IMG/VR virus record: IMGVR_UViG_2630968533_000001
DNA: 47,560 nucleotides
Source: a virus
Taxonomy: Duplodnaviria > Heunggongvirae > Uroviricota > Caudoviricetes
Direction: 5' to 3' (one strand)
Both the position numbers and the translations under genes were made by a program. The first letter of the stretch is position 1. The number at the start of each line of letters is the position of its first letter. The notes under the pieces were generated by a model that did no database searches, was not told where the DNA came from, and saw only the letters and a program-made list of their open reading frames with translations. Positions 3,605 through 28,918 of this stretch are shown in pieces.

Positions 3605-3769
3605 TGTGATGATTCCCTTAAAGGTTAAGGATACTCACCACCGTCAGGTTCCAATCATTGGGTGGTGAGACGTGCAGGGTTGGAACTACCGGACACAATG
3701 ACGAACCGGCGAGTCTTACGACTCCCCCGCACGCCCCACCATAATTTGGGTGTAGCAGTGCTTTACGCA

Positions 3770-3869
3770 TAAAAAAACCGCTAACGCGGTATGCGCCATT
3801 GTGTCTACGGGGTTCCAATCCCGACCGTAGATTTTGCTACGGCTCGGAAAGTGTCCACCAATGGCGCAT
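3770..3869 (-). ncRNA. Candidate structured small RNA / leader element (c4-like hypothesis)
   Basis: On the minus strand an 11-bp terminal stem (3791-3801 with 3859-3869) encloses an inner hairpin ctacgg/ccgtag, followed by hairpin accgc-gtta-gcggt and a U7 run (3770-3790); loop sequence has a near-complement at about 3680-3695 in the downstream leader. Confidence 0.25.
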
Positions 3870-4360
3870 TCATGTCAATACGGCGGGATTTTAACAGAGA
3901 CAACCACATAGCGTGGGTTTATTGGTAGGCAGAAACAAAAAAACCGCCCTATTGAGGACGGTTCTTTCGTGCTGATCGGATTCGCGGTCCTTTCAGCATA
4001 ACGTCGTTGTATAAACAACCACGCAAGCACAAGCAGCAAGTTAATTTTACCCAAAAGGTAATAATAGTCCACTATTATGCTTCAAAAAATTGTGGTTCTT
4101 GTTGTGCCTGCAAACTCACAGATTGTGGGTAGGTTACTGATTTTGTGAAAATAAACGAGTTTTTTCGTTTAATTTCTTTCCTATTACTAATCTTAAAATA
4201 ATCGTAAAATACCTGTGGACCTTCCCGCCGATTCGCACCCGGGCACCGACTTTAGGGGAGGATTCTCCGTTGCCGTACATGCAAGCACAAGCAGCCGTGC
4301 TTGCTCTCGCGTTGTTTTCGTCGGTGGGGATGCCGTGAAACGGCCTGTAAGGGCCATACA

Positions 4361-4483
4361 ATGAAAAAATACTGTATGTGTATTTTTATCGTTGTTACTG
4401 GGGCTTTGTTTACGCCACATGGGGAGGGTTGGAAGATTACTGATAACGCTCTGAATGTGACGATAAACATTAGCAGCAAGTAG
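4361..4483 (+). CDS. Small hydrophobic ORF (40 aa, MKKYCMCIFIVVTGALF...), speculative
   Basis: In-frame ATG within ORF 4301-4483; hydrophobic N-terminus; followed by a strong terminator; no SD seen. Confidence 0.2.
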   Translation: MKKYCMCIFIVVTGALFTPHGEGWKITDNALNVTINISSK

Positions 4484-4487
4484 CGAT

Positions 4488-4512
4488 TAGGCCCCTTCGG
4501 GGGCCTTTTTTA
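4488..4512 (+). terminator. Rho-independent terminator (AGGCCCC-TTCG-GGGGCCT then T-run)
   Basis: Perfect GC-rich hairpin followed by TTTTTTAT. Confidence 0.55.
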
Positions 4513-4797: not shown

Positions 4798-4840
4798 GTG
4801 TATCCCCTCTTATATAAATCTATAAAACTATAATTATATA

Positions 4841-5511: not shown

Positions 5512-5620
5512 ATTTGGTTATATAATTCTATAAATCTATATTTATAGAACGAGGTAAGCATAACCAACTTTTTGGCGGATGAAAAGCGTTTTATATAATT
5601 ATATAAATCTATAATCATGT
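5512..5620. repeat. Iterated AT-rich boxes upstream of parA (putative partition operator/centromere-like site)
   Basis: Two related boxes (5518-5549, 5589-5616) containing TATATAATT(A/C)TATA and AATCTATA; perfect 14-bp palindrome TATATAATTATATA at 5592-5605. Confidence 0.4.
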
Positions 5621-6111: not shown

Positions 6112-6768
6112 TCATAACCAGTTGACAACACTAACTACGCGGCCAAGAACTTTATAACGCTTAAATTCCTCGTTATTCAGATGCTTAGTGTTCATTTCAG
6201 CATCCCTTTCGGTTGACAGCATAACAGCATTGTCACCCGGTATGACTCTACAGTGCCTCAAAACAACCAGGCCATTTCTGTCTTCAAGGGCATAGATCCC
6301 CTCATGAATCTCTGTATCGTCTGTATTAATCAGGACTTGGGAGCCAGGGGATATTGTTGGTGACATTAACTCATCGTTGCTCTGGAGAACTGACAGAGAC
6401 GATGGGTTGATGTTCTTGCTTCGTAGAATCTCCTGTTCTATCGCCAGCACTGGCTTTTCTCCGGCGTGCGATGCTATGTCATTTTTTATAGCTACAAGCC
6501 CAGGAATAACAGGAGCGTTAGTATTCTGGGGTGGGAACGGGTTATCTGTTAAGCACGCGATATAAGGCGCTGATGCTTTCAGGGCGTGCGCGATTTTCTT
6601 GATGGCAGGTATAGATGGTTGTCTTAATCCGGCCTCATAGTTCTGCAAGGTGCTTAAGCCTATTCCAGTGACTTGCTGGAGATCTCCGGCAGTCATGCCG
6701 GATTGTTTCCGTAGAGTCTGAATGCGCAGACCTATTTCTTTCTTGATGTTCTCGTCGTTGCTTTTCAT
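6112..6768 (-). CDS. cI-like repressor (N-terminal HTH plus C-terminal S24/LexA-like peptidase domain)
   Basis: ORF track; N-terminal HTH IGLRIQTLRKQSGMTAGDLQQVTGIGLSTLQNYEAG; C-terminal autocleavage-type domain; divergent from the cro-like gene. Confidence 0.8.
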   Translation of the reverse strand: MKSNDENIKKEIGLRIQTLRKQSGMTAGDLQQVTGIGLSTLQNYEAGLRQPSIPAIKKIAHALKASAPYIACLTDNPFPPQNTNAPVIPGLVAIKNDIASHAGEKPVLAIEQEILRSKNINPSSLSVLQSNDELMSPTISPGSQVLINTDDTEIHEGIYALEDRNGLVVLRHCRVIPGDNAVMLSTERDAEMNTKHLNNEEFKRYKVLGRVVSVVNWL

Positions 6769-7436: not shown

Positions 7437-7948
7437 TGATTCTGGCCTTCTTTGGTGATAATCACCAGATTCAATCGCAGGTGGTGCACTACCTTGATCA
7501 AACGATTAAAGGATTTGTTATCGATCATATTGATAACGATAGCAAACGTCTATCTGTAGAGCAGAAAATTGGAGGTGTGCAGCGACTGGTTGCCAGCCGT
7601 AACAGACGTGACACCGTAACAGTCGTTACGGGGATTACGGAGGTCATGGAGTACCAGATGTTGCTGCATCGTGGAGCTGTTTTCTGCGTTCTTCCTGGTA
7701 TTCTGCCAGCAATTCTTGCTCGTGGTTTTGTCCCTATTGATGAGTCGTTCTTATATGTAACCCCAAGCCGTTCCCTTCTGGATACGGAGGCGAAGCGTCG
7801 CATTTATATGATGCCGGACGAGGCATTTTCTGAATGTTACCGCCGTGAAATGAGGTTGGTTAAACGAGAAGTGTCTGTTGTTCGTGATGGCAGGTTTTTA
7901 AGAAGCCGCACGGTGAAAAGCACCAGAAATGACGGGGGCCATCAATGA
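7433..7948 (+). CDS. Hypothetical early protein (171 aa)
   Basis: ORF track; start overlaps the upstream stop; no domain recognised. Confidence 0.45.
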   Translation: MMILAFFGDNHQIQSQVVHYLDQTIKGFVIDHIDNDSKRLSVEQKIGGVQRLVASRNRRDTVTVVTGITEVMEYQMLLHRGAVFCVLPGILPAILARGFVPIDESFLYVTPSRSLLDTEAKRRIYMMPDEAFSECYRREMRLVKREVSVVRDGRFLRSRTVKSTRNDGGHQ

Positions 7949-8178
7949 GTAGTTATGTTCGCGGTGCTGCGATGCATTGCCAGAATCCCCAATTCTGGCG
8001 CTTTCTGACCAGTAAAACAGGGAAGAACGTTTCAAACAGTTCTGAGGCCTCTGTGATTCTGCGTGAGTTTTGCGGGATCTCATCCCGTAAAGAGCTGGCA
8101 AAGAACTACGCGGCCAGAAGCATGTATGTCCAGTTAATCAACGAGTTCAACCTCTTTATCAATGGTAAGGGGCGCTGA
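7945..8178 (+). CDS. Hypothetical protein (77 aa)
   Basis: ORF track; translationally coupled within the early operon. Confidence 0.4.
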   Translation: MSSYVRGAAMHCQNPQFWRFLTSKTGKNVSNSSEASVILREFCGISSRKELAKNYAARSMYVQLINEFNLFINGKGR

Positions 8179-9343: not shown

Positions 9344-9461
9344 AATCTATAAATATATAATTATAGATTTATATAAAAAGTGCTTTACAGGTGGGAAAAA
9401 ATTTCCTATGGTTATACCCGAAACCGAGCGATACCCGCCCTGGTTAAACCGGAGAAATCTG
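9344..9461 (+). promoter_or_regulatory. Conserved promoter-leader cassette, copy 2
   Basis: About 95 bp identical to copies 1 and 3 (TTTATATAAAAAGTGCTTTACAGGTGGGAAAAAATTTCCTATGGTTATACCCGAAACCGAGCGATACCCGCCCTGGTTAAACCGGAG); ends at ATG 9462. Confidence 0.55.
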
Positions 9462-10529
9462 ATGAATAAACAAGTAATTATTTCTGACTGGATCAACAAC
9501 CCTAACAGCCTGTTAAGCACTGATACTGGCTACCTATTACGCCATGTTAATGGTCGTATGGTCAAAAGCGATGAGCACGAAACCTTTTTCTTTGTTGAAG
9601 ACGATGGGCGTATCTATGAGGATGGTTACTCTTATGAAGCCCAAACTGGTTGTATCCCTGCGGAGCTGGTGGACGTAACAGAAGATCTGCGCAAAGCATG
9701 GCTTGAACAGCAGCAGCGCGGAGATGATTACGTAAACACCTATCAGGAACGCCAGAACGCGCGTCTTGCCCGATATATTGCTCGTGCAGAAAAAGCCAGA
9801 AAAGAAGGTGCGGTAGCGCATAAGCGAGCGCATGACCTGTTGGATGTGATCCCGTTAGGCCAGCCGATTTTAGTTGACCATTATAGCGCGAAAGGCCATC
9901 GCCGCCGTTTGTCTAAAGCTGATGCGTTATTCAGAAAAGCGTTTGTTGAATGCGAAAGTAAAGCATCACACTACGAGAGCAAAGCCGCAGGTGTTGGTCG
10001 TAATGGAATTTCGTCTGATGATCCTGATGCGCTATTTAAGTTGCTTCGTAAGCTGCAAGGCTGCATGAAGTCACACGTCAAAATGAAGGCCGCAAATAAG
10101 GCCATTCGCAAATACAAAAAAGACCAAATACAGCAGCTTTCTGCATTAATCGATCTCAGGTTTACAGAAAGCGAAGCCAAAGAGTTACTGGCCGGAGATT
10201 TCTGTGGGCACATCGGATTCCCTTCATACGCACTGAGCAACAATAACGCCGAAATCAAACGACTACAGAGCCGTATTAAGGAGCTTGAATCGGTCAAGTC
10301 TGTAACAGGAGCACAGCGCGAAGAATACGACGGCTTTTCTATGGAGATAGATCCAGAGGATAACCGCATCCTGTTTTATTTCCCTGGCAAACCAGAGGCA
10401 AACATTCGTTCGCTGCTTAAATCACGCGCCTTTAAGTGGAGTCCAACCCGTAATGCATGGGTTCGCAAGATTACTCCAAACGCCCTGGCTGATGCCCGAT
10501 ATCTAAAAGAATCGCTATTGAAAGCCTGA
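9462..10529 (+). CDS. Hypothetical protein (356 aa) expressed from cassette copy 2
   Basis: ORF track ORF 9408-10529, but the ORF-track start lies inside the conserved leader; ATG 9462 sits at the same position relative to the leader as in copies 1 and 3. Confidence 0.55.
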   Translation: MNKQVIISDWINNPNSLLSTDTGYLLRHVNGRMVKSDEHETFFFVEDDGRIYEDGYSYEAQTGCIPAELVDVTEDLRKAWLEQQQRGDDYVNTYQERQNARLARYIARAEKARKEGAVAHKRAHDLLDVIPLGQPILVDHYSAKGHRRRLSKADALFRKAFVECESKASHYESKAAGVGRNGISSDDPDALFKLLRKLQGCMKSHVKMKAANKAIRKYKKDQIQQLSALIDLRFTESEAKELLAGDFCGHIGFPSYALSNNNAEIKRLQSRIKELESVKSVTGAQREEYDGFSMEIDPEDNRILFYFPGKPEANIRSLLKSRAFKWSPTRNAWVRKITPNALADARYLKESLLKA

Positions 10530-10538
10530 CAGTAAGCC

Positions 10539-10568
10539 TACGGCGGGACGTCTCCCGCCGTATATAGA
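10539..10568 (+). terminator. Intrinsic terminator-like hairpin (CGGCGGGA-CGTC-TCCCGCCG) with T/A-rich tail
   Basis: Perfect 8-bp GC-rich stem directly after the stop at 10529. Confidence 0.45.
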
Positions 10569-10606
10569 ATTATATATTTATACAAATGTATAAGGACGCC
10601 TCGACA

Positions 10607-13555: not shown

Positions 13556-13951
13556 ATGTCAGCAGAACCAATTTCCGGTACGGCCGTTGCTGCTGGTGGC
13601 CTGATGGGTGCCAGCGTTTTTGGTATTGCAACTGGTATTGATTACGGCGTTGTATTCGGGGCATTTGCTGGCGCTGTTTTCTATGTTGCTACAGCGGTGA
13701 ATATTAGCCGTCTCAAGCTGATTGGCTATTTCTTTACATCGTTCATTGTTGGAGTGATTGGAGCGCCGTTAGTTGGCTCATTTCTTGCCAAATGGACCAG
13801 CTACAACGATCGACCTCTTGATGCGCTTGGTGCGGTTATTGTGGCTGCATTGACAATTAAAATCCTCACGTTCGTAAACAGCCAGGATCTCGGTAGCATC
13901 TTTGGAATGCTTTCCCGCTTACGTGGAGGGGGTTCAAATGGTAAGCAGTGA
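13556..13951 (+). CDS. Holin-like membrane protein (131 aa, multiple TM segments)
   Basis: ORF track; Gly/Ala-rich hydrophobic segments; first gene of the lysis cassette. Confidence 0.5.
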   Translation: MSAEPISGTAVAAGGLMGASVFGIATGIDYGVVFGAFAGAVFYVATAVNISRLKLIGYFFTSFIVGVIGAPLVGSFLAKWTSYNDRPLDALGAVIVAALTIKILTFVNSQDLGSIFGMLSRLRGGGSNGKQ

Positions 13952-14234
13952 CCCGTCAGCACTGATTAATGCGGTGCTTTGCACAGTAATAGTAATGGCG
14001 CTGATGCTTTATCGACGGAAAGACTCCAGGCATCGTCCATTTGTTTCCTTTCTGGCTTATATCTACGTCATTGTATACGCCAATGTTCCCTTCCGTTATG
14101 TGTTCGGTCTTTATCAAGAATCCCACTGGCTGGTGGTTATTGGAAATCTGATTATCTGCATCGTTGTTCTGTATTTCAGGGGCAATCTGGCGCGGATAGT
14201 TGACGCATTAGGATTTAATCATGACCAAAGATGA
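13938..14234 (+). CDS. Second holin/antiholin-like membrane protein
   Basis: ORF 13902-14234; likely start ATG 13938 with SD GGAGGGGG; three hydrophobic segments. Confidence 0.4.
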   Translation: MVSSDPSALINAVLCTVIVMALMLYRRKDSRHRPFVSFLAYIYVIVYANVPFRYVFGLYQESHWLVVIGNLIICIVVLYFRGNLARIVDALGFNHDQR

Positions 14235-14763
14235 GATTTTTAACAGCATTCTTGGAAAAGAGGGCGGCTATGTGGATCACCCTGACGACAAGGGAGGCCC
14301 AACAATGTGGGGCATCACTCAGAATACTGCCCGTGCTCACGGATACCGTGGCGATATGCGAGATCTGACGCGAGAACAGGCTCTGATGATTCTTGAAGGT
14401 GATTATTGGTATGGGCCTCGTTTTGACCAGGTGGCGCAATTTTCCCCTGATATTGCGGCTGAGATGTGCGATACGGGCGTCAACATGGGGCCGACTGTGG
14501 CTACGAAGATGCTTCAACGTTGGCTGAATGTTTTCAACCGTGGCGGGAAGTTGTATCCAGATATGGATGTGGATGGGCGAATCGGCCCGCGCACCATTGC
14601 GGCATTACGTGCTTATCTTGGGAATCGGGGAAAAGACGGCGAACGGGTAATGCTGACGGCCCTGAACTGTACGCAGGGCGACCGTTATCTGGACCTGGCG
14701 GAGAAACGCGAAGCAAATGAGTCGTTTGTCTATGGCTGGATGAAAGAGCGAGTGGTGGTATGA
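14221..14763 (+). CDS. Endolysin (GH108-like N-terminal domain plus peptidoglycan-binding C-terminal domain)
   Basis: ORF track; N-terminal GKEGGYVDHPDDKGGPTMWGIT is the GH108 signature as recalled; position between holin and spanins. Confidence 0.8.
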   Translation: MTKDEIFNSILGKEGGYVDHPDDKGGPTMWGITQNTARAHGYRGDMRDLTREQALMILEGDYWYGPRFDQVAQFSPDIAAEMCDTGVNMGPTVATKMLQRWLNVFNRGGKLYPDMDVDGRIGPRTIAALRAYLGNRGKDGERVMLTALNCTQGDRYLDLAEKREANESFVYGWMKERVVV

Positions 14764-15038
14764 CTGGTTTGAAGGCCGTTTTGTCATTTATTGGCACAAT
14801 TATATTGGTTGCATTCGGCGCGTTTGGTTTTGGTCGTATGAAGGGGCGAGAAAAGGCCGAAGATGAAGCTGAAAAGCAGCGCATTAATGAGAATGCAGCC
14901 GCCGTAAAAGCCACTGCGGAGCGGCGTATAGAAGTGACAAAAGAGGTGGGGAATGTACAGCAGAGTGTTAACCATATGGCTGATGACGATGTTGATCGCG
15001 AGCTGCGGGAGTCGTGGAAGCGTCCCGGTGGTGGTTGA
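14760..15038 (+). CDS. i-spanin (Rz-like)
   Basis: ORF track; N-terminal TM helix then charged coiled-coil; Rz1-like ORF begins inside its 3' end. Confidence 0.55.
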   Translation: MTGLKAVLSFIGTIILVAFGAFGFGRMKGREKAEDEAEKQRINENAAAVKATAERRIEVTKEVGNVQQSVNHMADDDVDRELRESWKRPGGG

Positions 15039-15162
15039 TACCGCCTGTGATTGGGTAAAGCCCATCTACCTGACTGATCACGACATCGATGTTATGGACC
15101 GCCAGACAAAGAAAGATATTCTGGCTCATAACAGGGCATGGGAAATCAACTGTCCAAAGTAA
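14953..15162 (+). CDS. o-spanin (Rz1-like lipoprotein) overlapping Rz in another frame
   Basis: ORF track; signal peptide with lipobox-like LIASC; starts within the Rz coding region. Confidence 0.55.
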   Translation: MYSRVLTIWLMTMLIASCGSRGSVPVVVDTACDWVKPIYLTDHDIDVMDRQTKKDILAHNRAWEINCPK

Positions 15163-15331
15163 TATATATTTCTATAATTATATAAATATATAGTTACAAC
15201 ATTCTATGCGCTTTTCTCATGGGCGCACGCATCAACCATGTTTGTCTGATATGCCGCCGCGCCCAAAAATCCTGAATTTATTGGCTGGGATTTTCGTGCG
15301 CGGCGCCACACCAGACAAACAAATCAAATAT

Positions 15332-15407
15332 GGCCCCTTAGCTCAGTGGTTAGAGCAGGCGACTCATAATCGCACGGTCATCGGTTCAAATCCGGTAGGG
15401 GCCACCA
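15332..15407 (+). tRNA. tRNA with CAT anticodon (tRNA-Met or lysidine-type tRNA-Ile2-like)
   Basis: Cloverleaf read by hand: acceptor GGCCCCT/AGGGGCC, D-arm GCTC/GAGC, anticodon loop CTCATAA (CAT at 15365-15367), T-arm ATCGG-TTCAAAT-CCGGT, encoded CCA; G1-C72 paired so not an initiator; 5' half resembles E. coli ileX as recalled. Confidence 0.85.
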
Positions 15408-15714
15408 ATTCACTCTCACACATAAAGATAAGCGCGGTGGAGTTACTTCTTCGTGCTCATCTTTATGCGTGCCTGGTGCGCATTTCGGGCGAACGTGGGG
15501 CTAAGTTACAGGCAGGGCCTGTTATCCGCAAAGGGGTAAAAGCTGGAGCGGCACGGAACTGTAGCCGTGTTACCAAAACAGCGTTGTCGGGCGATATCCG
15601 GCACACAACAGGCAAGGGCATTAATCAGTCTGGTTAGCGCCCTTTTCGTTGTGTTTGCTGTAGAGCTGGCCAGCGTTATGACTGCCGGAGATAAGCGCCG
15701 GAGGCACAATTAAC

Positions 15715-16302
15715 ATGGAGGAAATTGCATTGTTTAATCTGATTTATGCAGATCCCCCCTGGGAATACAAAGACAAGTGTAAGGATGGGAATCGTGGAGC
15801 TGGTTTTAAGTATCCAACGATGAAAGCTGAGGAGATTGCTCGTATTCCTGTCTGGCAGCTTGCTAATCCTGAATCGTGTTTGTTGGCCATGTGGTGGGTT
15901 CCGACTCAGCCAGAAGAAGCGTTGCTGGTGGTGAAAGCATGGGGATTCAGGCTTATGACCATGAAGGGCTTCACATGGAACAAATGTGGTAGCCGACAAC
16001 CAGATAAGCTGGTGATGGGGATGGGGCATATGACTCGTGCAAACAGTGAAGATTGCTTGTTTGCGGTAAAAGGCAAATTGCCGACCCGCCTTGATGCGGG
16101 GATCATTCAGTCGTTTACATCGCTTCGTCTGGAGCATTCTCGGAAGCCTGATGTGGTTCGTGACAAGCTGGTAAGGCTGTTAGGTGATGTTCCTCGTATT
16201 GAGCTGTTTGCTCGCGGTGATTTACCTGATGGTTGGCATGGCTGGGGCAACCAGTGCAATGGAGGTATCCAGTTGCATGATGCTCTCTGGCAAGTGGCAT
16301 AG
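15715..16302 (+). CDS. MT-A70 family adenine DNA methyltransferase
   Basis: ORF track; catalytic DPPW motif in LIYADPPWEYK near the N-terminus. Confidence 0.8.
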   Translation: MEEIALFNLIYADPPWEYKDKCKDGNRGAGFKYPTMKAEEIARIPVWQLANPESCLLAMWWVPTQPEEALLVVKAWGFRLMTMKGFTWNKCGSRQPDKLVMGMGHMTRANSEDCLFAVKGKLPTRLDAGIIQSFTSLRLEHSRKPDVVRDKLVRLLGDVPRIELFARGDLPDGWHGWGNQCNGGIQLHDALWQVA

Positions 16303-16415
16303 AATTATATAATTATATATTTATATAAAAAAGTGCTTTACAGGTGGGAAAAAATTTCCTATGGTTATACCCGAAACCGAGCGATACCCGCCCTGGTTAA
16401 ACCGGAGATAACCCG
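16303..16415 (+). promoter_or_regulatory. Conserved promoter-leader cassette, copy 3
   Basis: Near-identical to copy 1; perfect palindrome TATATAATTATATA at 16306-16319; -35 TTTACA 16337-16342, -10 TATGGT 16360-16365. Confidence 0.55.
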
Positions 16416-16685
16416 ATGAAAGTACAAGACCGTGAAGTAGTAAAAAACCTCCTGCAATACCTGACCTCAAAAAACCTGACGAGCAGCGTTGAGTTCCGTG
16501 AAGCGTTAAAACATTTCAACGTCACTACGGTTTATCGTTGGGAAAACAAACATTCTGAAAGACCGTATGTGGTGGATGTTTTTGCGCCTGATATTGAGTG
16601 CGGTTTTGAGCGCCATTCATTCAAAAAGAAACATTCCGCTGATGTTTTTTGTGAGGTTGTATGTGCGGCAGGAGATGATGAGTGA
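16416..16685 (+). CDS. Hypothetical protein (89 aa) expressed from cassette copy 3
   Basis: ORF track; ATG directly after the conserved leader. Confidence 0.55.
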   Translation: MKVQDREVVKNLLQYLTSKNLTSSVEFREALKHFNVTTVYRWENKHSERPYVVDVFAPDIECGFERHSFKKKHSADVFCEVVCAAGDDE

Positions 16686-27874: not shown

Positions 27875-28918
27875 ATGCCGAATATTGATATTTTTGAACG
27901 ACGTACGATGCTTGAGCCTGTTATTCAGAATTTCAAGGCTCGTCGTTTTCTTCTTCGTACCTTTTTTCCTGGTGTTCAGACCTTTAATACAAAGAAAGTT
28001 GATCTGGATTTTGTTCGCGGTGGCCGTACTATGGCTCCGTTTGTTGGTAAAGGTTTTGGCTCAAAAACCGTTGAGCGACGCGGCTTTGTAACGAGAACTC
28101 TGGAGCCACCACTTGTTGCACCTGATTTGGTAACAACAGCCGAGCTGCTTTTAAACAGGCTTCCGGGTGAGAATATTTACAACGCAAAATCGCCAGCAGA
28201 ACGAGCCGCCGAGCAATTAGGTAAAGATTTGCTTGAGCTTGATGAAATGGTTAACCGCCGTGAAGAATGGATGTGTGCACAAGTCTTGTTTACGGGGCAG
28301 GTTGATATTGTTGGTGAAGGAGTGGATGACACAGTTTATTTTTGGCCTGAAGAGGAAGGAGATAAACCATATCTTGAACTGACAGGTGATGATTTATGGA
28401 GTGCAGCAAAATCAGATCCGTTAGTCAATGTTCGCAACTGGAAACGTCGGGTATCACTAACTTCAGGTTTTACACCTCGTGTTGCCGTAATGGGCGCAAA
28501 AGTTGTTGATGCCTTCGTTAAAAATGAAGCAGTAACTAAATATCTTGATAATCGCCGAAAAGAGCTTGGGTATATTGAGCCTAAAGAGTTAGAAGAAGGC
28601 GTAACTCATTATGGCAATCTTGAAGGTGTCGATTTTTATGGTTACGACGAACTTATTCGCAATGATAAAACAGGAAAACCTGAACCATTAGTACCGGAAG
28701 ATAAGATCCTCTTTGGCTCTCCTGGTCGAGGAACGATGCTGTATGGTGCTGTAGAGCTTGTAGATGACGCCGAAAAGACTCTAACGATTGTTGAGTCACC
28801 ACGAGTTCCAGACACTTGGGTAACTCGTAAGCCGGCTGGCCGTTATGTTGCCATGAAGTCATCTCCACTGCCTAATCCTGGTGTGGCTGATGCCTATCTG
28901 GTGGCTAAGGTGGTTTAA
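27875..28918 (+). CDS. Major capsid protein (lambda gpE-like)
   Basis: ORF track; N-terminal FKARRFLLRTFF and C-terminal RVPDTWVTRKPAGRYVAM resemble lambda gpE as recalled. Confidence 0.85.
   Translation: MPNIDIFERRTMLEPVIQNFKARRFLLRTFFPGVQTFNTKKVDLDFVRGGRTMAPFVGKGFGSKTVERRGFVTRTLEPPLVAPDLVTTAELLLNRLPGENIYNAKSPAERAAEQLGKDLLELDEMVNRREEWMCAQVLFTGQVDIVGEGVDDTVYFWPEEEGDKPYLELTGDDLWSAAKSDPLVNVRNWKRRVSLTSGFTPRVAVMGAKVVDAFVKNEAVTKYLDNRRKELGYIEPKELEEGVTHYGNLEGVDFYGYDELIRNDKTGKPEPLVPEDKILFGSPGRGTMLYGAVELVDDAEKTLTIVESPRVPDTWVTRKPAGRYVAMKSSPLPNPGVADAYLVAKVV

Follow-up and report, generated by a model that had tools for sequence, protein, structure and literature searches.

The 47,560-nucleotide stretch of phage DNA analyzed here (the window) carries a tRNA gene with the anticodon CAT downstream of its lysis genes. 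Such a gene raises three questions: whether it specifies an initiator tRNA-Met, an elongator tRNA-Met, or the minor isoleucine tRNA (tRNA-Ile2), from which lineage it comes, and what use it may be to the element that carries it.

A Single tRNA Gene Downstream of the Lysis Cassette

The window is a rotated copy of the 47,558-bp circular plasmid of E. coli strain 254D-1, its start corresponding to plasmid position 911. In a search of the whole 47,560-base window, ARAGORN called exactly one tRNA, at 15332-15407 on the plus strand, with the anticodon CAT at position 34; these are the coordinates and anticodon that had been proposed in an earlier reading made without database searches (hereafter, the sequence-only reading). 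The Rfam tRNA model matches the same interval with 67 bits (gathering score 29; E 1.6e-12). The gene and the cassette that precedes it are as follows.

13556-15162, plus strand: lysis cassette, comprising two holins, an endolysin of the GH108 type, and a spanin-like pair (list of open reading frames; PGAP annotation, shifted by 910 nt, of the identical plasmid)
15332-15407, plus strand: tRNA-Ile2 gene, 76 nt, with encoded CCA, presumably lysidine-modified to LAU (ARAGORN, Rfam, cloverleaf, identity positions, alignments to ileX, ileY, P1 trnI, and metT, PGAP label)

The cloverleaf is complete. The acceptor stem contains seven Watson-Crick pairs, G1-C72 among them, the D stem four pairs, the anticodon stem four pairs (28-42 through 31-39) topped by a G27/A43 mismatch, and the T stem five pairs, including a U50-G64 wobble. 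Conserved nucleotides are found at U8, A14, G18G19, and A21, in the T-loop (UUCAAAU), at the discriminator A73, and in the encoded CCA, and the anticodon loop (positions 32-38, CUCAUAA) is the same as in E. coli ileX and ileY. The free-energy fold of the isolated sequence (z-score -3.1) does not contain the D and anticodon arms, which such folds usually miss in unmodified tRNA sequences. We conclude that 15332-15407 is a genuine tRNA gene, and the clean 76-nt cloverleaf with encoded CCA that the sequence-only reading had placed after the lysis genes is thereby confirmed. The gene lies 170 nt downstream of the end of the lysis cassette (15162), whose spanin is Rz-like and matches that of phage mEp390.

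Identity of the tRNA

When aligned with E. coli K-12 genes, the window tRNA is 89.5% identical to ileX and 86.8% to ileY, versus 74% to the elongator genes metT/metU and 61% to the initiator gene metZ. It has the same length as K-12 ileX (76 nt) and is identical to it over positions 1-42 and 66-76, so that the resemblance of its 5' two-thirds to ileX, which the sequence-only reading had pointed out, turns out to be exact up to position 42. The eight differences from ileX are at positions 43, 44, 49, 50, 51, 59, 63, and 65, and there are ten differences from ileY. In the T stem, 49-65 has changed from G-C to A-U, 51-63 from U-A to C-G, and 50-64 to U-G; the stem is thus preserved, because the first two pairs changed on both sides and the third forms a wobble.

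Initiator tRNA-fMet is characterized by an unpaired 1-72 position (C1/A72) and by three consecutive G-C pairs in the anticodon stem (29-31 with 39-41). Both features are absent from the window tRNA, in which G1-C72 is paired and the corresponding anticodon stem pairs are C29-G41, G30-C40, and A31-U39. These identity elements, together with the 61% identity to metZ, rule out an initiator tRNA-Met, which the sequence-only reading had already set aside because of the G1-C72 pair.

The choice between tRNA-Ile2 and an elongator tRNA-Met, which would read AUG, depends on the determinants recognized by modification enzymes and synthetases. E. coli TilS needs C4-G69 and C5-G68, whereas the corresponding pairs of tRNA-Met, U4-A69 and A5-U68, block it (PMC2500205; PMC12514573). 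Both C4-G69 and C5-G68 are found in the window tRNA, and a position-by-position reading showed that the two tRNA-Met pairs are absent from it. Acetylation of tRNA-Met by TmcA requires C27-G43, C30-G40, and G44 (PMC2500205); none of these three determinants is present in the window tRNA, which has G27/A43, G30-C40, and C44 instead. The elements used by IleRS include the discriminator, the anticodon loop, C4-G69, the pair 12-23, and C29-G41 (PMC9976931), and in the window tRNA A73, C4-G69, C29-G41, the pair 12-23, and A37 after U36 all lie within the segments identical to ileX.

Annotations of the gene are divided. PGAP labels it tRNA-Ile in 15 of the 15 RefSeq records listed for the identical gene, whereas ARAGORN, the GenBank records of Yersinia phages, and many other phage records give the same or a similar gene as tRNA-Met. 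These tRNA-Met labels derive solely from the CAT anticodon, and they are what speaks for the elongator alternative; given the lower identity to metT/metU than to ileX, the TilS-compatible pairs where tRNA-Met has negative determinants, the missing acetylation determinants, and the PGAP label, we regard an elongator tRNA-Met as extremely improbable. The tRNA-Ile2-like identity suggested by the sequence-only reading is therefore retained, and the gene very probably provides a further, functional copy of this minor isoleucine tRNA, predicted to read AUA, on a circular phage-plasmid.

Relationship to P1 trnI and Other Phage-Borne tRNA-Ile2 Genes

When phage records were searched by a sensitive method for the 76-nt gene, about 690 of them were retrieved. 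After three Yersinia phages, the best matches were P1, P7, D6, SJ46, and RCS47, each with 94.7% identity. In P1, this gene (trnI) is annotated as "tRNA-ile2 (CAT) gene; 89 pct identical to ileX." The P1 gene and the window tRNA share 72 of 76 positions and differ at 6, 26, 50, and 59, and the copy found in the P1-like plasmid pHX138.33gt_1 is even closer (97.4%). The window tRNA and the P1 lineage have in common G27/A43, C44, and the CCGGU 3' strand of the T stem, and the 5' strands of that stem are nearly identical (AUCGG in the window and pHX138, ACCGG in P1). In comparison with E. coli ileX, on the other hand, the window tRNA has a different T stem and an A instead of a G at position 59, and the flanks are unrelated. 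Because A43, C44, and CCGGU are shared and the T-stem 5' strands are nearly identical, we assign the window tRNA to the P1-type trnI lineage rather than to a recent capture of host ileX. The likeness to ileX pointed out in the sequence-only reading thus stands for the 5' segment, which is identical, but the nearest relative is P1 trnI and not the host gene.

Like the window gene, P1 trnI is a tRNA-Ile2 gene borne by an E. coli phage-plasmid. The genomic settings nevertheless differ. P1 also carries tRNA-Asn and tRNA-Thr, whereas the window element has only one tRNA, and P1 trnI belongs to the C1-controlled ban operon, after tciABC, whereas the window tRNA sits between two hairpins, with the lysis genes on one side and an MT-A70 methyltransferase gene on the other. 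The ileZ gene of 933W resembles the window tRNA in being a phage-borne Ile2 gene with anticodon CAT and a non-Watson-Crick 27-43 position, located in the late region of a temperate E. coli phage. It differs in belonging to an ileZ-argN-argO cluster that has an annotated promoter of its own and lies upstream of stx2 in an integrating lambdoid phage, as well as by its ileY-like U6-A67 acceptor pair and its host-like T stem. Copies of ileX also occur in virulent and other phages. One of them, mislabelled tRNA-Met, is found among the morphogenesis genes of Pectobacterium phage Ymer; it is likewise an Ile2-type tRNA with the anticodon CAT, but its sequence is exactly that of E. coli ileX, unlike the window gene, a member of the diverged P1 lineage. 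The flanks of the window tRNA showed no meaningful similarity to the contexts of the tRNA genes in P1, 933W, or Ymer, nor to those of ileX and ileY.

The G27/A43 mismatch deserves separate consideration. It results from the replacement of U43 of ileX by A, which turns a G27-U43 wobble into a mismatch, and it is accompanied by a U44 to C change. Substitutions in the anticodon stem have been reported to impair E. coli TilS (PMC11947777), and by analogy the efficiency of TilS on the window tRNA could be reduced. The same G27/A43 is present in P1 trnI and in P1-like plasmids, 933W ileZ has A27/C43, and position 27-43 is non-Watson-Crick in every Ile2-type gene compared. In a speculative and quite unlikely reading, the mismatch common to the P1 lineage could be a phage-specific adaptation, for example, one that avoids acetylation by TmcA or alters handling by TilS.

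A Phage-Plasmid Family That Carries the tRNA

According to the PGAP annotation, the genes of the element include RepA, ParA, a RelE/ParE toxin-antitoxin, and a full set of terminase, portal, capsid, sheath, tube, and baseplate genes, with no integrase among the 69 annotated features of the plasmid. From the association of RepA/ParA and RelE/ParE with a complete virion gene set and no integrase, it follows that the element is a phage-plasmid, circular and of the RepA/ParA kind, whose structural module is that of a myovirus. The window also contains, beside antirepressor-type genes, a P1-like C4 antisense RNA, a second P1-related module.

A 1.2-kb region around the tRNA matches the E. coli 254D-1 plasmid at 100% and is present in 67 complete E. 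coli genomes. In PLSDB, at a coverage of at least 80%, separate counts gave 57 plasmids with the tRNA region and 57 with the terminase gene; these plasmids come, among others, from E. coli ATCC 25922 (a 48.5-kb plasmid) and from E. albertii, E. fergusonii, and Klebsiella aerogenes, and many clinical E. coli isolates keep the element as a plasmid. The 1.2-kb region is 99% identical, and the tRNA strictly identical, in the 49-kb Yersinia phages vB_YpM_39, 41, and 44, whose deposited records are complete phage genomes naming Y. pestis EV76-CN as the host, which implies that the family forms virions. Phage HQ103 of Y. pestis (pseudolysogenic, 32 kb) is distinct from these phages, and pSLy3 belongs to the SSU5 supergroup, another phage-plasmid group than that of the window.

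Eight further window-type IMG/VR contigs carry the tRNA, three of them with a single change (A26U, C13U, which produces a U-G pair, and A59G), and none of these changes disturbs its structure. The tRNA is thus maintained across the family; because the members are nearly clonal (98-100% identity), this conservation says little on selection.

A Variable Slot in a Conserved Structured Region

Two relatives of the element do without the tRNA. Plasmid CP053324 of Salmonella salamae (49.3 kb, locus L012), although syntenic with the window (identity about 70-80%), contains no tRNA at all, and a 47.2-kb IMG/VR contig (L013), similar to it, likewise does not carry one. The following features surround the tRNA in the window.

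15163-15210, plus strand: AT-rich box with the operator-like motif TATAATTATATA at 15171-15192 (conserved in relatives that are 70-80% identical elsewhere)
15239-15321, plus strand: long imperfect hairpin with 34-nt arms, ending 10 nt before the tRNA (repeat search; fold -40.3 kcal/mol, z -6.7)
15417-15471, plus strand: hairpin starting 9 nt after the tRNA 3' end (repeat search; fold -25.4 kcal/mol, z -5.3)
15614-15652, plus strand: weak hairpin resembling a terminator, with TTTTCGTTGTGTTT after it, located between the tRNA and the MT-A70 gene (repeat search; fold -16.7 kcal/mol, z -2.3)
15715-16302: MT-A70 methyltransferase gene

In both relatives, the AT-rich box is conserved nearly base for base and the long hairpin is present, with predicted energies of -56 kcal/mol for its equivalent in the Salmonella plasmid and -41.8 kcal/mol in the IMG/VR contig, and homology to the window restarts at 15479. 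The interval in between is filled with unrelated sequence, amounting to about 227 nt up to the equivalent of the hairpin 15417-15471 in the Salmonella plasmid and to 672 nt in the contig, where the window has 10 nt, the tRNA, 9 nt, and the hairpin. This unrelated filling of the same interval indicates that the tRNA is accessory cargo in a variable slot, and the upstream hairpin belongs to the backbone and not to the tRNA insert. Both arms of that hairpin are changed in the Salmonella plasmid, and the contig has a hybrid version with mismatches, a pattern that recombination fits as well as selection on pairing.

The whole region 15200-15480 folds with a z-score of -6.4. The hairpin at 15417-15471 may be a processing or stabilizing element, or a terminator-like structure without a U tract. 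A terminator scan did not call the hairpin at 15614-15652 and found no canonical terminator next to the tRNA, and Rfam searches around the tRNA at a permissive threshold returned only chance matches of hairpin type (miRNA precursor models and a weak rydB).

A rival explanation is that the tRNA is a passive remnant, that is, part of an attachment site or a piece of captured host DNA, with no role for the element; the sequence-only reading had likewise envisaged an attachment-site remnant. Other temperate phages integrate next to ileX, the Klebsiella "phage" record MK422453 has the host genes rpoD-mug-ileX at its edge, and the two relatives just described lack the tRNA. (The edge of MK422453 shows the pattern expected of a prophage recorded with its host flank.) Against such an origin, the element is a circular RepA/ParA plasmid with no annotated integrase, the window contains no second copy of the tRNA 3' half with up to three mismatches, and the 25-nt 3' end of the tRNA occurs only once in it, even when three mismatches are allowed. 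Moreover, the flanks are not similar to the ileX, ileY, P1, or 933W contexts, the gene is full length with all conserved nucleotides and a T stem that stays paired, and P1 trnI is closer to it than any host gene. We thus consider a passive remnant highly improbable, and the attachment-site hypothesis was abandoned for want of an integrase, a 3'-end repeat, and flank homology.

AUA Codon Usage

If the gene supplies a tRNA-Ile2, the element might be expected to use AUA codons, as the sequence-only reading had supposed for its AT-rich head and tail genes. Codon usage was computed from the 66 PGAP coding sequences (CDS) of the plasmid and from a sample of 19 K-12 core genes, with the following AUA frequencies.

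All CDS: 16.2 per 1000 codons, 25% of Ile codons
Structural genes: 20.7 per 1000, 31.7% of Ile codons (GC content 42%)
Early and maintenance genes: 14.1 per 1000
Lysis genes: 8.0 per 1000
Methyltransferase block after the tRNA: 6.8 per 1000
Sample of 19 K-12 core genes: 3.3 per 1000

The published value for E. coli is 4.9 per 1000 (PMC12514573). AUA makes up a larger share of the Ile codons in late genes than it does in the early and maintenance set (odds ratio 1.7, p = 0.003). The supposition therefore holds: the structural genes are AT-rich and AUA-rich, and AUA is more frequent in them than in early and maintenance genes or in E. coli (3.3-4.9 per 1000).

Several caveats attach to this usage. 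AGA is over-used equally (12 per 1000 in structural genes), and the element has no tRNA-Arg. The major capsid protein, the most abundant protein, has zero AUA codons and the tail tube protein has one, so that the expression-weighted demand for AUA decoding is lower than raw counts suggest. The densest users are the low-copy baseplate proteins J (48 per 1000) and gpD (36 per 1000), together with a small head-tail protein (61 per 1000), and the repressor is also AUA-rich (37 per 1000).

In homologous structural genes, AUA reaches 22.6 per 1000 in the window versus 12.4 per 1000 in the tRNA-less Salmonella plasmid (p = 8e-5), whereas the other genes show no difference in AUA use between the two; GC3 also differs, being 0.31 in the window and 0.44 in the Salmonella plasmid. 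We also used an AUA index, which relates AUA among Ile codons to the use of A-ending codons in four-fold codon families. This index is 0.92 in the structural genes of the window, 0.63 in its other genes, 0.75-0.79 in the Salmonella plasmid, and 0.34 in K-12. Avoidance of AUA is thus relaxed family-wide, and only somewhat more where the tRNA is present, and the AUA excess is in large part general AT-richness. Because the two tRNA-less relatives still use AUA at 12-14 per 1000, the tRNA is clearly not essential to the element, to which it is plausibly helpful.

Possible Expression of the tRNA

The conserved box upstream of the long hairpin bears on how the tRNA might be transcribed. The TATAATTATATA motif is found at seven intergenic, promoter-proximal loci in the window, with 25 matches versus 0.39 expected, and three of the seven loci lie within a 115-nt repeat that comprises a promoter-like TTTACA-17-TATGGT, a leader, a ribosome-binding site, and an ATG. 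A similar layout is seen upstream of the tRNA.

15193-15223, plus strand: possible promoter, with GTTACA at 15193-15198, a 19-nt spacer, and CATGGG at 15218-15223 (layout parallel to that of the three-copy repeat)

The counterpart of CATGGG is TATGGG in both tRNA-less relatives. A sigma-70 scan of the interval from the lysis genes to the tRNA detected no consensus promoter, and the AT-rich box had no match in a scan of genome contigs. By analogy with the repeat, this arrangement suggests a regulated promoter upstream of the tRNA, with a transcript start just before the long hairpin. The transcript would run through this hairpin, the tRNA, and the second hairpin, past the structure at 15614-15652, and on toward the MT-A70 gene. 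Read-through from the lysis operon is an equally possible source of the tRNA transcript.

A more elaborate proposal is that the tRNA, instead of being an independent gene, forms part of a hairpin-tRNA-hairpin cassette in the leader of a TATAATTATATA-controlled operon, so that the supply of tRNA-Ile2 would be switched on with induction and would gate the synthesis of AUA-dense, low-copy proteins (baseplate J and gpD) and perhaps that of the AUA-rich repressor. We regard this as a speculative and quite unlikely scenario.

Proposed Role of the tRNA and Competing Explanations

In E. coli, tRNA precursors are generally matured by RNase P and by trimming of the 3' end to the encoded CCA. The window tRNA is predicted to be expressed, lysidine-modified, and charged with isoleucine, and it may bring a fitness benefit. 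In the scenario that we favor, which conforms to what is established for tRNA-Ile2, a tRNA of the P1 trnI lineage would have entered the structured leader that separates the lysis genes from the MT-A70 gene. Host RNase P and 3' processing enzymes would trim its transcript, in which the CCA is already encoded. Host TilS would then recognize C4-G69 and C5-G68 and convert C34 to lysidine, and the modified tRNA would be charged by IleRS rather than by MetRS and would read AUA and not AUG. The phage gene would add to the two chromosomal copies, ileX and ileY, its dosage rising upon lytic replication, and the extra tRNA-Ile2 should help the translation of AUA-rich genes, in particular those for head, tail, and baseplate, which are AT-rich.

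The same amplification during lytic replication would also suit a different main role, namely the buffering of the tRNA pool against host defenses or infection-induced tRNA loss rather than codon compensation. Buffering is a general idea in the literature on phage tRNAs, and nothing in the window is specific to it. Phage tRNAs that evade nucleases have been reported to carry escape mutations, but here the anticodon loop and the stem up to position 42 are those of the host, with no such mutation, and the element has a single tRNA only; in addition, we know of no anticodon nuclease specific for tRNA-Ile2. Buffering as the main role thus seems very unlikely.

The main benefit might alternatively go to the lysogen, with the tRNA improving the translation of AUA-rich, horizontally acquired host genes (lysogenic conversion). 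An argument of this kind has been made for the ileZ-argN-argO cluster next to stx in 933W-type phages, and the maintenance of the element as a plasmid in many clinical E. coli isolates is in agreement with it. The motif upstream of the tRNA is, however, common to six other promoter-proximal sites, which hints at phage-controlled rather than constitutive expression, and virtually all E. coli already possess the chromosomal copies (matches in 5423 of 5426 genomes). A benefit directed mainly to the lysogen is therefore rather unlikely, and easier translation of the AUA-rich genes of the phage itself remains our preferred reading.

Implications for the Phage-Plasmid Family

A phage-borne tRNA-Ile2 is ordinary cargo, already known from two decades of annotation (P1 trnI, 933W ileZ), and the window gene itself is already tRNA-Ile in RefSeq, so that our knowledge of phage tRNAs is unchanged by it. 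Its identification has the small practical value of correcting a recurrent mis-annotation as tRNA-Met, in the Yersinia phage records and in many others. Other by-products of the analysis are the operator-like motif, which is AT-rich and conserved, and the structured leader surrounding the slot. At the level of the family, the shared cargo ties these 47-kb phage-plasmids to P1, and the coexistence of lineages with and without the tRNA offers a natural comparison with which to ask whether a phage tRNA-Ile2 pays for AUA-rich late genes.

Sequences flanking and replacing the tRNA

The variable slot that holds the tRNA-Ile2 gene in the window, between the lysis genes and the MT-A70 methyltransferase gene, is preceded by a long hairpin with 34-nt arms, which is kept both in lineages that carry the tRNA and in those that do not, the latter including two syntenic relatives, the Salmonella salamae plasmid CP053324 (L012) and an IMG/VR contig (L013). 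In these relatives the slot is occupied by unrelated filler sequence:

Window 15239-15321, long hairpin
L012 40045-40127, long hairpin
L013 about 7908-7988, long hairpin
L012 40127-40353, unrelated filler in the tRNA slot
L013 7988-8660, unrelated filler in the tRNA slot

Folding energies of the hairpin range from -40 to -56 kcal/mol across the three sequences. Its upper stem (CGCCCRAAAATCC/GGATTTTCGKGCG) is invariant among them; the lower stem is altered in both arms in L012 and mismatched in L013. The hairpin might serve as a leader, processing site or terminator, or it might act at the DNA level. ARAGORN and Rfam searches identified neither a tRNA nor an Rfam family in the L012 filler, and ARAGORN found no tRNA in that of L013. 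On its minus strand, L012 also has a potential reading frame of 92 aa.

In the window, the ORF list places one further reading frame over the tRNA, the long hairpin and a second hairpin downstream (15417-15471):

15206-15637, plus strand, 143-aa ORF

This frame, annotated neither by PGAP nor in phage records, is almost certainly spurious.

Promoter-proximal repeats

The near-palindromic AT-rich motif TATAATTATATA, whose copies overlap with 8-bp phasing, has 25 matches in the window at one mismatch or less, versus 0.39 expected. All seven loci are intergenic and promoter-proximal, and the motif is probably an operator for some element-encoded regulator. A promoter-leader repeat of ~115 nt, also present in L012, heads three different genes. 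In each copy this same AT-rich motif is combined with TTTACA-17-TATGGT, a 5' leader that is conserved, GGAG and an ATG.

39-66, 4829-4840, 5519-5605, 9348-9367, 10563-10582, 15171-15192 and 16300-16327, TATAATTATATA loci
36-157, 9348-9474 and 16299-16419, promoter-leader repeat

Other RNA elements

Three further RNA elements were identified in the window:

3658-3746, minus strand, C4 antisense RNA (77.8 bits)
3771-3843, minus strand, isrK (67.7 bits)
4215-4511, plus strand, full-length ryfA RNA homolog (141.8 bits, E-value 1.7e-36)

Downstream of C4 and isrK, on the minus strand, lie a small ORF, an ORF6N-domain pseudogene and a Rha-family gene, the whole block being a P1 immI-like antirepressor control module. 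The ryfA homolog of this phage-plasmid adjoins the parA region; in enterobacteria, this sRNA locus normally lies on the chromosome.

Codon use and annotation of the tRNA

AUA codons are absent from the major capsid gene (27875-28918) and abundant in the XRE-family repressor gene (6112-6768, minus strand), where they make up 8 of 218 codons and 42% of those for Ile. AGA is over-used in the structural genes (22726-43462; 12 per 1000), and the element carries no tRNA-Arg.

A similar tRNA-Ile2-type gene occurs in about 690 phage records. The copy in L009 (MK422453.1 3615-8690, Klebsiella "phage" ST13-OXA48phi12.1) was rejected as phage cargo: because host rpoD, mug and ileX lie at the record edge, it is a host gene at a prophage boundary. 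In GenBank phage records, such CAT-anticodon genes are widely labeled tRNA-Met or left unannotated (OR545053-55, MK416018, OP748252 and many others), and the tRNA-Met labels represent a systematic mis-annotation based on the anticodon only.
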